Virus record (IMG/VR): IMGVR_UViG_2531839665_000023
Strand: one strand, 5' to 3'
Length of the DNA stretch: 45,588 nt
From: a virus
Lineage: Duplodnaviria > Heunggongvirae > Uroviricota > Caudoviricetes
Numbering within the stretch: the first letter of the stretch is position 1; every line of letters begins with the position of its first letter. The notes under the pieces are model-generated. The model did no database searches. It was not told the DNA's origin and saw only the letters and a list, made by a program, of their open reading frames with translations. Position numbers and translations under genes: made by a program. Shown here piece by piece: positions 8,095 to 44,287 of the stretch.

Positions 8095-8927
8095 ACAGTT
8101 TAACGGCAAATAACCGTTTGTCGCAACAGCTGGTGGTCAGTGTCGCTGAACACCTGTTGTTACGGCATGAATGCAGATTACCAAATCACCTGGCTGTAAG
8201 TAACCACAGAGAACTTTACCTGACTGTGGGGGGCGAGTTGTGCGGGAACTTAACCGCTGGTTTCGTGACGGAAGAGGGCTTTATGTCCATGTTATTCGTT
8301 GGGAACCAGAAACACAGCGCGTTATCTATCTTCGCAAAGACTACCCGCATGAGTGCTTTAGTCCTTTGTGGAAATTCAGGCGTGATTTTGTTGAGTGTGA
8401 AGGACCACCAGCACATTGATTCTGCCATTCCGGGACGTTACACTGTTCAGGCACCTTATAAAGCGGGTGCCGGGATTGGCGTCCTGGAATTGATCAAGGC
8501 GATATATGACGCGCCAGCGTCTTTTTTATCGTCCGCATTTGCTCACATCAAAGTTATGGTGGGCTGGGCGGGGGCATCGAAAGATGCGCCGGTTTCCTTG
8601 ATCACCGGTTACGCCAACCCCGTTCAGTTCACCACCAGCGAAATTGGCGTTTCCGGTGGTGGAAGTATTTCACCGATCAAGGAGGCTGCCATCATGGCTA
8701 CTGTCCCAGCCCTCACTCGTCTGAATGATGAAGACTTACATAAACTCAGTTATGTAACAACTGCACTACGTGCTCTGCGCAAGGTAACTCTTTCGGATCC
8801 GCAGGCGCATCAGGTTCTGGTAGAAACCCTTCTTAACTTGCAGGCTGAACGTATCCGTTTGGTGGATAAGGCTAATTTTCATATTCACCGTCTCCTGAAT
8901 ATCAGCGGAGGGCATCGTCATGCTTAA
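8091..8927 (+). CDS. Hypothetical protein; ORF of doubtful extent
   Basis: Track ORF; N-terminal third is low-complexity and an alternative frame (8240-8419) reads more protein-like; C-terminal part more convincing. Confidence 0.35.
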   Translation: MNSLTANNRLSQQLVVSVAEHLLLRHECRLPNHLAVSNHRELYLTVGGELCGNLTAGFVTEEGFMSMLFVGNQKHSALSIFAKTTRMSALVLCGNSGVILLSVKDHQHIDSAIPGRYTVQAPYKAGAGIGVLELIKAIYDAPASFLSSAFAHIKVMVGWAGASKDAPVSLITGYANPVQFTTSEIGVSGGGSISPIKEAAIMATVPALTRLNDEDLHKLSYVTTALRALRKVTLSDPQAHQVLVETLLNLQAERIRLVDKANFHIHRLLNISGGHRHA

Positions 8928-15447: not shown

Positions 15448-15747
15448 AAAAATTCCTTAATACTGATAACTGGGCGCACTATACACACGTTCCTGAAGAA
15501 AGCTATAGTTTTTTGATGGGGTTGAAGATGGCTGGATGTCTAAAATAAACATTGCTTCATATGTTCAACTATGCGTTAATGATTGCGTCGGTTTGAAGAA
15601 CAGACGATATACGAAGTAGTTTACTAAAGCAGTTCTCATTTCAGGTGTTATTCACTTATTCCTTCTTTGAGTCTCTCCAATTAAGTACGAAGTCGTTTCT
15701 GTTATACAAGCCATTTATGCCGAAAGGCTCAAGTTAAGGAATGTAGA

Positions 15748-15963
15748 ATGTCAAATAAAATGACTGGTTTAGTAAAATGGTTTAACGCTGATAAAGGTTT
15801 TGGCTTTATTTCTCCTGTTGATGGTAGTAAAGATGTGTTTGTGCATTTTTCTGCGATTCAGAATGATAATTTTCGAACCTTATTTGAAGGTCAAAAGGTT
15901 ACCTTCTCTGTAGAGAGTGGTGCTAAAGGTCCTGCAGCAGCAAATGTCATAATTACTGATTAA
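15748..15963 (+). CDS. cspB: Cold-shock protein, CspB-like
   Basis: 71 aa; [21 protein letters not shown] with RNP motifs; csp-type leader with GCCGAAAGGC box before the Shine-Dalgarno. Confidence 0.9.
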
Positions 15964-16245
15964 AATTCATAGTTTGTCTGTATACGATAACGAAGAAGGC
16001 TGATGCCTGAGTGGAGATACAGACTGAGTGGTGAATATTGGATCTCTTTAATAAATAGTAAGGAGGTCCAATACATGAAACAATGGCCAGCATATTTGGC
16101 AATAACTTAATCAGGAAAAGTATGCTAACCATTGTGGTGAAGTGCAGGTTTGCTGCATGAATAGTTTTACAGCAGAAGCTAACTGCTGGCATAGCAAAAC
16201 AAAGTGCGTAAGTGGATGACTCCCACAAAAAGTACCACAATATTA

Positions 16246-18836: not shown

Positions 18837-19199
18837 ATTAATATTAAATCGGATTATTTTTAGCGCTGAATGTGAAATTTAAATAAAAAGGACTCTTCCA
18901 TGAGTCAAAATCCTTGAAATCTTAAGGGTAAGATAAAAGGTCATTAGACAGAATGACACGTTTTATTAATAAATAAAGCTATTGTTTCATTCGTGTGTTT
19001 TTCTTTACAAAAGTAATCCTTGCTATGGTTGGTTAATCATGCGTTAATGGTGTTCTGGTTTGTTACAAAATTATCTGAAGCAGTCATTGTTATAATTTTA
19101 TTATTTGTACCTCTTGAGATCTCCTTGTTGGTTTTTCTCTCTGATATTTTTTTTCGGACCATTCTGCCCAAGGGCTAACTTCTTCAAAAGGTAATAATG

Positions 19200-19412
19200 A
19201 TGTCTAACAAAATGACTGGTTTAGTGAAATGGTTTAACCCTGAAAAAGGTTTTGGTTTCATCACGCCGAAAGATGGTAGCAAAGATGTGTTTGTCCATTT
19301 CTCAGTTATTCAGAGCAACGATTTCAAAACGTTAACTGAGAATCAGGAAGTCGAATTTGGTATTGAGAACGGACCTAAAGGCCCCGCGGCTGTTCATGTA
19401 GTGGCACTTTGA
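19200..19412 (+). CDS. cspI: Cold-shock protein, CspI-like
   Basis: 70 aa; [34 protein letters not shown]. Confidence 0.9.
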
Positions 19413-19616
19413 GGTAGAAAATATTACAAACCATATTCACTTTAGATGCCCGTGTTGCCATGGTTCTCAGTATAGAACATCATCTTTTGATGTTTCTGAC
19501 AGGAATCCTTTCGGGGCAAAATGTATCTTTTGTAAATCAATGATGATTACATTTGATAATATTTCACAATACTTAAATGTTAGCCGTCTGTCGTTAGATT
19601 TAAGAAAGTGAAAATG

Positions 19617-23908: not shown

Positions 23909-24117
23909 ACCAGAATGATATCGAAGCCATGATTCAGCGTTATACGGAAGCTGAAATGGCGGTGCTGGACGGAAAATCCGTCACCTTTAATGGTCAGCAG
24001 ATGACCATGGAAAACTTATCTGAGATCCGGCAGGGACGGCAGGAGTGGGAGCGCCGCCTTGCGGCTCTGATTACACGACGACGGGGGCATCCCGGGTACC
24101 GGCTTGCGAGGTTCTGA
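23905..24117 (+). CDS. Head-tail joining protein, gpW-like
   Basis: 70 aa; ATG overlaps terL stop; GGAGGA Shine-Dalgarno; position and size as lambda W. Confidence 0.6.
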   Translation: MNQNDIEAMIQRYTEAEMAVLDGKSVTFNGQQMTMENLSEIRQGRQEWERRLAALITRRRGHPGYRLARF

Positions 24118-25625
24118 TGGCAATTCTTGATGATGTGATTGGCGTTTTTTCACCAGGATGGAAAGCGGCAAGGCTGCGTTCCCGTGCGGTGATCCAGGCT
24201 TATGAGGCCGTAAAAACGACGCGGACACACAAAGCCCGGCGGGAAAACCGAACTGCCGACCAGTTAAGCCAGTACGGGGCCGTGTCGTTACGTGAGCAGG
24301 CCCGTTACCTTGATAACAACCACGATCTGGTCATTGGTGTATTTGACAAGCTGGAAGAACGGGTGGTGGGGAAAAACGGGATTATTGTCGAGCCACATCC
24401 GGTATTACGCAATGGGGCCATTGCCCGTGATCTGGCAGCGGAGATACGCACCCGATGGAGTGAATGGTCTGTCAGTCCGGAAGTCACCGGGCAGTTTACC
24501 CGTCCGATGCTGGAACGTCTGATGTTGCGTACCTGGCTGCGCGATGGTGAGGTGTTTGCCCAGATGGTTTCCGGGCGCATAAACAGCCTGACGCCTTCTG
24601 CCGGTGTTCATTTCTGGCTGGAGGCGCTCGAGCCGGACTTTATTCCCATGACCAGTGATGAGAGCAACAGGCTGAATCAGGGCGTGTTTGTTGATGACTG
24701 GGGGCGTCCCGAAAAATATCTGGTGTATAAAAGCCGTCCCGTATCCGGACGGCAGATGGAAACCAAAGAAGTGGATGCAGAGCGAATGCTGCATCTTAAA
24801 TTTGTTCGCCGTCTGCACCAGATGCGCGGGACGTCTTTGTTGTCCGGTGTGCTGATCCGCCTCAGTGCCCTGAAAGAGTATGAAGATTCTGAGCTGACTG
24901 CAGCAAGGATCGCCGCTGCTCTGGGGATGTACATCCGGAAAGGCGACGGGCAGAGCTATGAACCGGATGGTAATGGCAGCAAGGATAAGGAACGCGAGCT
25001 TACCATTCAGCCAGGCATTATTTACGACGATCTGAAACCCGGCGAAGAAATCGGAATGGTGAAGTCGGATCGCCCCAATCCTAATCTTGAAACTTTTCGT
25101 AATGGTCAGTTGCGTGCCGTGGCGGCGGGCAGTCGTCTGAGTTTTTCCAGTACAGCGCGCAACTATAACGGCACTTACAGCGCCCAGCGTCAGGAGCTGG
25201 TTGAATCCACTGATGGCTACCTGATCCTGCAGGACTGGTTTATTGGTGCCGTCACCCGCCCGATGTATCGTGCCTGGCTGAAACAGGCTGTGGCATCCGG
25301 TGTTATCAGGCTACCCCGCGATCTTGATCGTTCTTCACTGTATACCGCGGTGTATTCCGGACCGGTGATGCCGTGGATTGACCCTGTTAAGGAGGCTGAG
25401 GCCTGGAAAATTCAGATTCGTGGTGGAGCGGCGACAGAATCAGACTGGGTACGTGCAGGTGGTCGTAATCCGGATGATGTCAAACGTCGGCGCAAGGCCG
25501 AAATTGATGAAAACCGCAAGCTGGATCTGGTATTTGATACCGATCCGGCCAGTGATAAAGGAGGCAGCAGTGCCGCAACGAAACGACAGGAGCCGCAGCA
25601 CACCGACGACCAGTCCGAAGAATAA
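24117..25625 (+). CDS. Portal protein
   Basis: 502 aa from the ATG overlapping W stop; position between W and protease/capsid gene. Confidence 0.8.
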   Translation: MAILDDVIGVFSPGWKAARLRSRAVIQAYEAVKTTRTHKARRENRTADQLSQYGAVSLREQARYLDNNHDLVIGVFDKLEERVVGKNGIIVEPHPVLRNGAIARDLAAEIRTRWSEWSVSPEVTGQFTRPMLERLMLRTWLRDGEVFAQMVSGRINSLTPSAGVHFWLEALEPDFIPMTSDESNRLNQGVFVDDWGRPEKYLVYKSRPVSGRQMETKEVDAERMLHLKFVRRLHQMRGTSLLSGVLIRLSALKEYEDSELTAARIAAALGMYIRKGDGQSYEPDGNGSKDKERELTIQPGIIYDDLKPGEEIGMVKSDRPNPNLETFRNGQLRAVAAGSRLSFSSTARNYNGTYSAQRQELVESTDGYLILQDWFIGAVTRPMYRAWLKQAVASGVIRLPRDLDRSSLYTAVYSGPVMPWIDPVKEAEAWKIQIRGGAATESDWVRAGGRNPDDVKRRRKAEIDENRKLDLVFDTDPASDKGGSSAATKRQEPQHTDDQSEE

Positions 25626-25638
25626 TTCCTGGTTCAGG

Positions 25639-27597
25639 ATGCAGGCAGGTCACCAGAGTGACGCGGATATTTATATTTATGACGAGATTGGTTTCTGGGG
25701 TGTTACGGCGAAGCAGTTTATCAGTGATCTGAATGCACTGGGCGATATCACCCACATTAATCTCCATATTAATTCACCGGGTGGCGATGTCTTTGAAGGC
25801 ATCGCCATTTTTAATGCACTGAAAACACATGGTGCGTCCATTACCGTTTATGTCGACGGTGTGGCGGCGTCAATGGCGTCGGTCATTGCGATGGTGGGAA
25901 ACCCGGTCATTATGCCGGAAAACTCCTTCATGATGATTCATAAACCATTTGGCTTTACGGGCGGTGATGCGGAGGACATGCGCACCTATGCCGACCTGCT
26001 CGATAAAGTTGAGGCGGTTCTGTTACCCGCTTATGCACAGAAAACCGGGAAAACCACCGATGAAATTGCTGCCATGCTGGCGGATGAGACCTGGATGTCC
26101 GGTGCCGAATGTCTGGCACAGGGATTTGCTGATCAGGTGACACCAGCCGTTAAGGCAATGGCATGTATTCAGTCAAAACGTACAGAGGAATTTAAAAAGA
26201 TGCCGGAATCCATTCGAAATATGATTACTCCGCCACGCAACAGTGCTCCACGCGTACAGGATGATGGACCTGCAGCCTCCCGGACGCCAGTGCAGGCAGC
26301 AGCACCCGTGGTGGATGAAAACAGCATCCGTGCGCAGGTCCTGGCAGAGCAAAAAGCGCGTGTAAACGGTATTAATGATCTGTTTGCCATGTTTGGTGGG
26401 CGTTATCAGTCGCTGCAGGCTCAGTGTCTTGCCGATCCTGAATGTTCGCTGGAGCAGGCCCGCGAAAAGCTGTTGAACGAGATGGGGCGCGAGTCCACGC
26501 CATCCAATAAAAATACCCCGGCTCATATTTATGCCGGTAACGGTAATTTTGTGGGGGACGGGATCCGCCAGGCGCTGATGGCGCGCGCCGGGTTTGAAAA
26601 AACCGAACGTGATAATGTCTACAACGGGATGACCCTGCGTGAATATGCCCGTATGTCACTGACTGAACGTGGTATTGGTGTTTCCAGTTATAACCCGATG
26701 CAGATGGTCGGTGCGGCGTTCACACACAGTACGTCTGACTTCGGTAATATTCTGCTGGATGTTGCGAACAAAGCCATTCTGCAGGGCTGGGAAGATGCCC
26801 CTGAAACCTATGAACAGTGGACGCGGAAAGGTCAGTTGTCTGATTTTAAAATTGCCCATCGTGTGGGTATGGGGGGCTTCAGTGCTCTGCGTCAGGTGCG
26901 TGAAGGGGCAGAATATAAATACGTCACCACCGGAGATAAACAGGCCACTATTGCACTGGCGACCTATGGCGAGCTGTTCAGTATCACCCGTCAGGCCATT
27001 ATCAATGATGATCTGAATATGCTGACCGATGTCCCGATGAAGCTGGGCCGTGCGGCGAAATCCACTATTGCCGATCTGGTTTATGCCATTCTGACGTCTA
27101 ACCCGAAAATCTCCACAGATAATGTAAGTCTGTTCGATAAAGCGAAACATGCAAACGTACTGGAGAGCGCGGCAATGGACGTGGCATCGCTGGATAAAGC
27201 CCGCCAGTTGATGCGCGTTCAGAAAGAGGGTGAGCGTCATCTGAATATTCGTCCTGCGTTCGTACTGGTACCGACGGCGATGGAGTCTGTTGCTAACCAG
27301 GTCATTCGCTCCTCAAGTGTCAAGGGGGCTGACATTAACGCCGGTATTATTAACCCGGTGAAAGATTTTGCGACCGTTATTGCAGAGCCTCGTCTTGATG
27401 ATAACAGCCAGACCACCTTCTACCTGGCTGCGTCCAAAGGCTCCGATACGATTGAAGTGGCTTATCTCAACGGTGTGGATACGCCATATATTGATCAGAT
27501 GGAGGGCTTCAGTGTGGATGGCGTGACAACGAAAGTACGTATTGACGCTGGTGTTGCGCCAGTTGATCACCGCGGCCTGGTGAAATGTACGGCGTAA
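25639..27597 (+). CDS. ClpP/S49-like head maturation protease fused to major capsid protein
   Basis: 652 aa; N-terminal protease region (HINSPGGDVFEG...SMAS), coiled middle, C-terminal capsid-like region. Confidence 0.8.
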   Translation: MQAGHQSDADIYIYDEIGFWGVTAKQFISDLNALGDITHINLHINSPGGDVFEGIAIFNALKTHGASITVYVDGVAASMASVIAMVGNPVIMPENSFMMIHKPFGFTGGDAEDMRTYADLLDKVEAVLLPAYAQKTGKTTDEIAAMLADETWMSGAECLAQGFADQVTPAVKAMACIQSKRTEEFKKMPESIRNMITPPRNSAPRVQDDGPAASRTPVQAAAPVVDENSIRAQVLAEQKARVNGINDLFAMFGGRYQSLQAQCLADPECSLEQAREKLLNEMGRESTPSNKNTPAHIYAGNGNFVGDGIRQALMARAGFEKTERDNVYNGMTLREYARMSLTERGIGVSSYNPMQMVGAAFTHSTSDFGNILLDVANKAILQGWEDAPETYEQWTRKGQLSDFKIAHRVGMGGFSALRQVREGAEYKYVTTGDKQATIALATYGELFSITRQAIINDDLNMLTDVPMKLGRAAKSTIADLVYAILTSNPKISTDNVSLFDKAKHANVLESAAMDVASLDKARQLMRVQKEGERHLNIRPAFVLVPTAMESVANQVIRSSSVKGADINAGIINPVKDFATVIAEPRLDDNSQTTFYLAASKGSDTIEVAYLNGVDTPYIDQMEGFSVDGVTTKVRIDAGVAPVDHRGLVKCTA

Positions 27598-27620
27598 ACG
27601 TCGCAGACAACAACTCTGAT

Positions 27621-27641
27621 GGCCCGTAAGGGCTTTTTTTG
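27621..27641 (+). terminator. Possible weak terminator after capsid gene
   Basis: GCCC-GTAA-GGGC followed by TTTTTTT. Confidence 0.45.
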
Positions 27642-27683
27642 TACCTGAAATCAGCCCCTGAACGGGGCTGTGCGGAGACAGTT

Positions 27684-28007
27684 ATGGCAAAGAATTTTGT
27701 AGAAGAAGGAAAAACGGTGGCGATTGTTGCCAGTGCAGCCATCAGCAGCGGAGATCTGGTGCAGGTGGGTGATGTTTTTGCGGTGGCGCTGACCGATATT
27801 CCACAGGGAGAAACAGGCGACGGCATAACCGAAGGTGTGTTTATGCTGCCTAAGCTGAAAACGGATGACATGAAAACGGGTAAGAAGGTTTATATGAAGT
27901 CAGGAAAAGTTCAGCTGACTAACAGCGGCTCTGATCCGCTGGTCGGGGTTGTCTGGGCAGATGCCGGAACCAGTGCAGAAGAAGTGCCGGTAAAACTCAA
28001 TGTCTGA
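27684..28007 (+). CDS. DUF2190-like head protein (decoration/structural)
   Basis: 107 aa from ATG with GGAGAC Shine-Dalgarno; position after capsid gene. Confidence 0.55.
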   Translation: MAKNFVEEGKTVAIVASAAISSGDLVQVGDVFAVALTDIPQGETGDGITEGVFMLPKLKTDDMKTGKKVYMKSGKVQLTNSGSDPLVGVVWADAGTSAEEVPVKLNV

Positions 28008-28275
28008 TCCCTTTTCCCGGCTGGCAGCGCGTATGGATGCGATCACGGTCAGAAAGATGGGAAAGACAGCCTCGATTAATGATGTCGATATGACTGTGAT
28101 CCCGGGAGAAACACTGGCAGAGCTGAATGCTCTGTCCGGACCTGCGGTCTCTCTGGTGGTGTTTTCTTCGGGATACCGCCCACGGCGCGGGGATCGCGTT
28201 GTTTATGACGGACAACAATGGACGGTCACACGGCATGAACGCTTTAACGGTAAGCCAATGATCTTTATTGAGTAA
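28000..28275 (+). CDS. Head-tail adaptor-like protein
   Basis: 91 aa; position between head genes and Z. Confidence 0.5.
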   Translation: MSDPFSRLAARMDAITVRKMGKTASINDVDMTVIPGETLAELNALSGPAVSLVVFSSGYRPRRGDRVVYDGQQWTVTRHERFNGKPMIFIE

Positions 28276-43712: not shown

Positions 43713-44287
43713 TGGCATTCAGAATGAGTGAACAACCACGGACCATAAAAATTTATAATCTGCTGGCCGGAACTAATGAATTTATTGGTGAAGGTGACGC
43801 ATATATTCCGCCTCATACAGGTCTGCCAGCAAACAGTACCGATATTGCACCGCCAGATATTCCGGCAGGCTTCGTGGCTGTTTTCAACAGTGATGAGGCA
43901 TCGTGGCATCTCGTTGAAGACCATCGGGGTAAAACGGTTTATGACGTAGCGTCAGGGGACGCGTTATTTATTTCTGAACTCGGTCCGTTACCGGAAAATG
44001 TTACCTGGTTATCGCCGGAAGGGGAGTTTCAGAAGTGGAACGGCACAGCCTGGGTGAAAGATGCAGAAGCAGAAAAACTGTTCCGGATCCGGGAGGCGGA
44101 AGAAACAAAAAACAGCCTGATGCAGGTAGCCAGTGAGCATATTGCGCCGCTTCAGGATGCTGCAGATCTGGAAATTGCAACGGAGGAAGAAATCTCGTTG
44201 CTGGAAGCATGGAAAAAGTATCGGGTATTGCTGAACCGTGTTGATACGTCAACTGCACAGGATATTGAATGGCCAGCACTGCCGTAG
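43712..44287 (+). CDS. tfa: Tail fibre assembly protein Tfa
   Basis: 191 aa; near-identical to lambda Tfa as recalled ([24 protein letters not shown]); TAATG overlap with stf stop. Confidence 0.9.

Follow-up and report, generated by a model that had tools for sequence, protein, structure and literature searches.

The window analysed here, the whole stretch of 45,588 nucleotides of IMG/VR virus record IMGVR_UViG_2531839665_000023 (Caudoviricetes), carries on its plus strand a single long gene situated between a portal protein gene of the lambda family and a gene for a head decoration (cement) protein. The head module reads, in order, terminase large subunit, small head protein, lambda-type portal protein, the long gene, cement/decoration protein, a head-tail protein of the Gifsy-2 family, and Z, U and V. 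No further capsid, scaffold or protease gene was found in this module from the terminase to the tail genes. The same gene order is common to mEp460, Stx2a phage(s), Gifsy-2, a Pseudomonas phage and a Vibrio phage. The coordinates of the gene, of its predicted parts and of its neighbours are summarized in Table 1; residue numbers refer to the 675-aa form of the protein except where the 652-aa numbering is indicated.

Table 1. Features at the fusion gene and its borders (window positions).
Feature	Position	Strand	Basis or remark
Lambda-family portal protein gene, directly upstream	24117..25625	+	Pfam Phage_portal_2 E = 5.7e-82; TIGR01539 456 bits
Full gene, most likely extent: fusion of ClpP-like prohead protease, scaffold-like module and major capsid protein	25570..27597	+	675 aa, 73.4 kDa, GTG start
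ORF as delimited in mEp460 GenBank records and in the initial annotation	25639..27597	+	652 aa
ClpP-fold serine protease domain, aa ~21-199	25630..26166	+	Pfam, PDB alignment, Foldseek
Predicted catalytic Ser101	25870-25872	+	invariant, 91/91 homologues
Predicted catalytic His124	25939-25941	+	invariant, 91/91 homologues
Acidic residue Glu173	26086-26088	+	Asp172 immediately before; aligns to ClpP Asp position
Pro/Ala-rich variable linker, aa 222-247, predicted disordered	26233..26310	+	pLDDT <50
Three-helix module, predicted scaffold-like, aa 248-311	26311..26502	+	AlphaFold2 model
Disordered junction, aa 312-324, STPSNKNTPAHIY	26503..26541	+	pLDDT <50 between two ordered modules; low conservation
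Major capsid protein domain, HK97-like fold, aa 325-675	26542..27594	+	Pfam, Foldseek
Terminator-like hairpin GGCCC-GTAA-GGGCT and T tract (T7)	27621..27640	+	terminator scan; 24 nt past the stop codon
Second hairpin CAGCCCC-TGAAC-GGGGCTG, 7-bp, GC-rich	27652..27670	+	immediately 5' of the decoration gene Shine-Dalgarno sequence
Head decoration (cement) protein gene, directly downstream	27684..28007	+	Pfam Phage_cement_2 E = 1.8e-20; PHROG 122 'head decoration' E = 9e-47

The initial annotation described one fused frame of 652 aa, and the plus-strand frame is uninterrupted from ATG 25639 to the TAA at 27595-27597, as claimed. The frame is also open further upstream, where GTG 25570 is the sole other in-frame start ahead of ATG 25639. 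A perfect AGGAGG lies 5 nt ahead of this GTG; a Shine-Dalgarno sequence was looked for in front of ATG 25639 and none was found. The 675-aa form overlaps the last 56 nt of the portal gene. PGAP picks the GTG start in a near-identical E. coli prophage, and its product, WP_001136588.1, is 100% identical to the 675-aa translation. The Shine-Dalgarno sequence and start are kept in a Stx2a phage, in which they read AAAGGAGG-N6-GTG, and in the Pseudomonas phage, in which they read GGAGG-N5-ATG. In the alignment with 83 distant representatives, aa 21-26 correspond to a W-[YF]-x-I-x-A motif. W21 and F22 of this conserved motif are encoded upstream of the Met at 25639, which itself sits at the Ile position of the motif; the matching residue is Ile in 42 of these representatives and Met in only 9. 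Taken together, the Shine-Dalgarno sequence, its conservation, the PGAP call and the upstream motif indicate that the gene therefore most likely extends over 25570-27597, so that, on sequence evidence, its true start is most likely GTG 25570, 69 bases upstream of ATG 25639. Of the limits given in the initial annotation, the stop at 27597 thus stands, while the start is more probably the upstream GTG. Many phage records likewise start the gene 69 nt too late.

The protein belongs to a well-populated family. NCBIfam NF045540 (ClpP-like prohead protease/major capsid protein fusion protein) matches it end to end, aa 9-651 (652-aa numbering) on model positions 2-651 of 652, with 984 bits against a cut-off of 475, and the match to PHROG 133 is also full length. 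Identity is 100% both with the mEp460_ev081 head protein and with RefSeq WP_001136588.1. The genes of mEp460 (gp05, NC_019716), mEp460_ev081, cdtI, Ayreon and phi458, together with WP_001136588.1, are essentially the same gene; in the mEp460 group the DNA identity is 99.3-99.8% (99.8% for mEp460_ev081, 99.3% for mEp460 gp05), and the genes also agree in their neighbours and annotated terminator. The group differs in the choice of start, the phage records beginning at the ATG (652 aa) and PGAP at the upstream GTG (675 aa). Farther afield, a library clustered at 50% identity was searched, and the majority of its 150 best representatives are colinear, full-length proteins of 640-740 aa with 35-60% identity (E <1e-97), and the full-length architecture is common to well over 100 clusters at 50% identity. 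The full-length form is present in 80 phage genome records, while in about 1500 others a ClpP-like protease occurs only on its own.

This distribution bears on whether the fusion could be a frameshift artefact of sequencing or assembly that joins two adjacent genes. At least 3663 scored proteins share this frame without interruption, and some of their clusters contain thousands of members. Because the fusion recurs in thousands of independent genomes, an artefact is excluded as its origin, and the chance of that reading is negligible. Separate genes emerging after sequence correction, an outcome that the initial annotation had held open against itself, were accordingly not encountered. The fusion is already known and routinely annotated, and the gene is an ordinary, catalogued head gene: NCBI devotes a family model to it, RefSeq contains an identical protein and experiments exist on a relative, so that it holds little discovery value. 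Literature searches returned no experiments on the fusion protein or on mEp460, nothing relevant on a fusion of ClpP and prohead protease, and no published map of the cleavage sites in this common family of capsid proteins. What is new here is confined to the corrected start codon and the conserved intergenic region with two hairpins.

The N-terminal domain is assigned to the ClpP fold by independent searches. Pfam CLP_protease matches aa 23-168 (652-aa numbering) with E = 4.6e-36, and the alignment with PDB ClpP chains (E = 8e-16) matches up the serine of AASM and the histidine of MIHxP. In the AlphaFold2 model, the domain superimposes on ClpP crystal structures with a Foldseek target TM-score of about 0.8. 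A protease fold, whose absence the initial annotation had named as the finding that would weigh against it, is thus present. At the position of the ClpP aspartate, 79 of the 91 homologues have Glu and 8 have Asp, so that 87 carry one or the other; the Glu at this acidic triad position, in place of the Asp of ClpP, counts against the main reading. The initial annotation had called the protease "ClpP/S49-type". The SppA/S49 model TIGR00706 has a cut-off of 155 bits and reaches 21.8, and no Peptidase_S49 match was obtained in the Pfam search. As the SppA/S49 models remain far under their cut-offs, membership in S49 (SppA/lambda gpC) is rejected and the protease is therefore ClpP/S14-like; the ClpP half of the earlier designation is retained and the S49 half is dropped.

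Cellular ClpP (MEROPS S14) shares the fold and the motifs that contain Ser and His. It differs in having Asp at the third triad position, where Glu is present here, and in that the domain described here is tethered to a capsid protein. The double-heptamer chamber that ClpP forms with a Clp ATPase would not be expected for a domain tethered inside a procapsid.

The region between the protease and the capsid domain was examined with an AlphaFold2 model built from a 91-sequence alignment that includes representatives at 35-60% identity, which gave a mean pLDDT of 84.9; a model built with 18 close homologues gave a mean pLDDT of 35.3 and was discarded. The retained model is ordered at aa ~21-200 and 325-675 and disordered at aa 222-247 and 312-324. 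A central region, composed of a disordered linker and a three-helix module, is present at aa 222-311. The linker varies in length from 5 to 54 residues across homologues, and its indels are visible in the alignment. The helices of the module, which has about 60 residues, are predicted at aa 250-273, 280-288 and 294-308 with pLDDT of 80-95. It bears a conserved E-x-x-R-x-x-x-I-x-x-x-F motif, in which R264 is nearly invariant, and the model suggests that it is scaffold-like. The "coiled middle" of the initial annotation is therefore, in the AlphaFold2 model, a short helical module flanked by disordered segments. The disordered junction that follows is most likely the region of maturation cleavage, which would free a capsid protein of ~38-40 kDa. 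Domain searches and a structure prediction had been proposed in the initial annotation as the way to check the three-part arrangement, and the profile searches and the confident model recover all three parts.

For the C-terminal domain, Pfam Phage_capsid_4 matches aa 354-649 (652-aa numbering) with E = 6e-55, and Mu-like_gpT gives a weaker match (E = 3.7e-8). Comparison with PDB sequences yields weak matches to the Mu GpT-type entries 8rkx and 8rkc (E = 2e-4) and to 9jod (E = 9e-3); no close homologue of the domain was found in the sequence search of PDB chains. The PDB matches listed by Foldseek are ClpP chains, and the capsid fold was compared against a viral library, in which the domain matches viral major capsid proteins, those of HK97 type included, with target TM-scores up to 0.82. 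The capsid-like C-terminal region of the initial annotation is borne out by the profile match and by this fold comparison.

GenBank labels for the gene vary and could be taken to mean that it encodes a protease or scaffold only, with the capsid protein encoded elsewhere: "protease/scaffold protein", "head maturation protease" and "head-tail preconnector protein Nu3" all favour that reading. Other records call the same gene "Major head protein", however, the C-terminal 350 aa carry the capsid profile match and the capsid fold of the model, and there is no other capsid gene between the terminase and the tail genes. We regard a protease/scaffold-only gene as extremely unlikely, and many phage records thus mislabel the gene in this sense.

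Just past the protease domain lies an in-frame ATG at 26200 (Met188 of the 652-aa form), an example of an internal start from which nested expression would add a protease-less scaffold-capsid protein to the full-length product. The nesting of C and Nu3 in lambda is a precedent for such an arrangement. The shell would comprise roughly 415 subunits, each with its own tethered protease if only the full-length polyprotein is made; under nested expression only a minority of the subunits would carry the protease. A GAGG is located 11 nt upstream of this ATG, the surrounding KKMPESIRNM is invariant among enterobacterial homologues, and in representatives of 443 and 468 aa the match is confined to aa ~223/258-674, so that they have the helical module and the capsid protein but lack the protease. 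These short representatives may, however, be truncated gene calls, and ATG 26200 has a weak Shine-Dalgarno sequence at a long distance. Of the 91 diverse family members only 10 have this Met but 85 have the Pro beside it, and the local conservation is therefore more likely a structural or cleavage signal. Met188 as an internal start throughout the family is rejected on the same count; internal initiation at ATG 26200 in the enterobacterial subgroup is possible but unsupported, and nested expression as a whole appears unlikely. A single full-length polyprotein remains the preferred reading.

The initial annotation reported a terminator-like hairpin after the gene, and on this point the terminator scan, the record NC_019716 of mEp460, in which the hairpin at 27621-27640 is annotated as a rho-independent terminator, and the conserved position agree. 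The hairpin is present in the minimum-free-energy structure. A hairpin with a different loop occupies the same place in the Stx2a phage and in Gifsy-2, and a comparable GC hairpin with a U-rich tail is found in the Pseudomonas phage. The hairpin and T tract thus have the appearance of a conserved intrinsic-terminator-like element inside the late operon. The second hairpin precedes the Shine-Dalgarno sequence of the decoration gene, GGAG at 27674-27677. At its place Gifsy-2 has CCGGCAC-GGC-GTGCCGG, in which the pairing is preserved by compensatory changes on both sides. No sigma-70-like promoter was found in 25300-28100 by the promoter scan, as expected within a late operon. There is a small chance that the hairpin pair regulates the ratio of capsid to cement protein or the timing of the two or, alternatively, that the polyprotein gene is also read from an internal start.

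The most informative relative is the tripartite capsid gene of Gifsy-2 (STM1034.3n, NC_010393), which is 70% identical over aa 18-674 with the same three-part order and is annotated as "Clp protease involved in capsid processing". The domain and gene-order features of the Gifsy-2 type are present in the window, namely a ClpP-like protease with Ser and His, a central region that may act in scaffolding and an HK97-fold capsid protein, encoded between lambda-type portal and decoration genes without a separate capsid, scaffold or protease gene. Gifsy-2 also shares the synteny of portal, fusion and decoration genes and the two intergenic hairpins, and its decoration protein is 61% identical. At 696 aa against 675 aa, the Gifsy-2 protein differs chiefly in its N-terminal extension and in the variable linker. 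The comparison with Gifsy-like prophages made in the initial annotation is well founded in view of the identities of the protein and of the product of the next gene. Effantin et al. reportedly described the fused protease and coat genes of Gifsy-2 in 2010 (Virology 402:355). According to PMC12315714 the protease and coat genes of Gifsy-2 are fused; PMC8814770 gives its capsid as T=7, and PMC8538268 describes its cement protein as trimeric and located at the 3-fold axes.

Two classical systems share single features with the gene. In HK97, the capsid protein gp5 carries a scaffold-like N-terminal module, the delta domain, which is removed by the phage protease inside the procapsid. The fusion of a scaffold-like N-terminal module to an HK97-fold capsid protein is thus common to both. 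In contrast, the gp4 protease of HK97 is encoded by a separate gene and is an S78 protease resembling herpesvirus assemblin, while the protease here is ClpP-like and part of the same chain; HK97 also uses covalent cross-links rather than a cement protein. Lambda (C/Nu3/E/D) resembles the prophage in the type of its terminase, portal and tail genes and in adding a decoration protein after expansion. Its protease C, however, is an S49 (SppA-like) enzyme, nested with the scaffold Nu3 and separate from the capsid gene E, whereas the capsid protein is fused here.

The gene is very probably the single head-shell gene of a lambdoid prophage of E. coli of the mEp460/Gifsy-2 type, encoding one three-part polyprotein. 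The predicted order of its parts is a ClpP-fold protease (Ser101/His124/Glu173), a disordered linker, a three-helix module, a junction and an HK97-fold capsid protein. The steps of maturation are drawn from the homology to Gifsy-2 and from the general maturation pathways of HK97 and lambda. On the lambda-type portal, the capsid domains would jointly build a T=7 procapsid whose interior holds the protease and helical modules; these would play the roles of the separate protease and of the delta domain or scaffold of other phages. Assembly would activate the protease, which would then cut within or near the disordered segments, and the ~310-325 N-terminal residues would be removed and degraded. 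The remaining shell protein of ~38-40 kDa (computed masses) would expand upon DNA packaging, after which the cement protein would bind the expanded shell. Autoproteolytic maturation, which the initial annotation had taken to be implied by the fusion, is thus suggested by homology, and the 70% identity to Gifsy-2 points to a proteolytic removal of the two N-terminal parts.

Positions 20000-44000 of the window are collinear with mEp460-type phages at ~97% identity, and positions 1-22000 match prophages in E. coli chromosomes at 99.9%. Towards the left of the window there are genes whose names are Qin/e14-like, and some pseudogenes occur in the neighbouring prophage copy; both observations speak for a decaying, non-functional remnant in a cryptic prophage. 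Against this, neither the frame nor the catalytic residues are disrupted, the head and tail module is complete, and the protein is 100% identical to that of mEp460_ev081, a propagating phage; a remnant is very unlikely, and the reading as a head-shell gene is preferred.

Several further features were observed in the window. Its start coincides with a prophage end, where a tyrosine integrase is encoded at 386-1609, and the same prophage adjoins yjjG in E. coli isolate 538. The small head-tail gene at 28000-28275 matches Pfam "Gifsy-2" (PF13856), which bears the description "ATP-binding sugar transporter from pro-phage", and has a weak Phage_attach (gpFII-like) match; PGAP names it "DNA breaking-rejoining protein". 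The Pfam description and the PGAP name look like legacy misnomers for a head-tail joining protein. In the early region, an isrK Hfq-binding RNA and a C4 antisense RNA are adjacent at 8451-8527 and 8552-8639 (Rfam, above the gathering score). Two cspA-type thermoregulator 5' leaders (Rfam RF01766) are located at 15587-16026 and 19053-19458 and correspond to cspB- and cspI-like cold-shock protein genes in the late/lysis region of the prophage. We also note an Rfam IS009 RNA match of 221 bits at 44055-44253, near the right end and inside or beside the tail-fibre assembly region.
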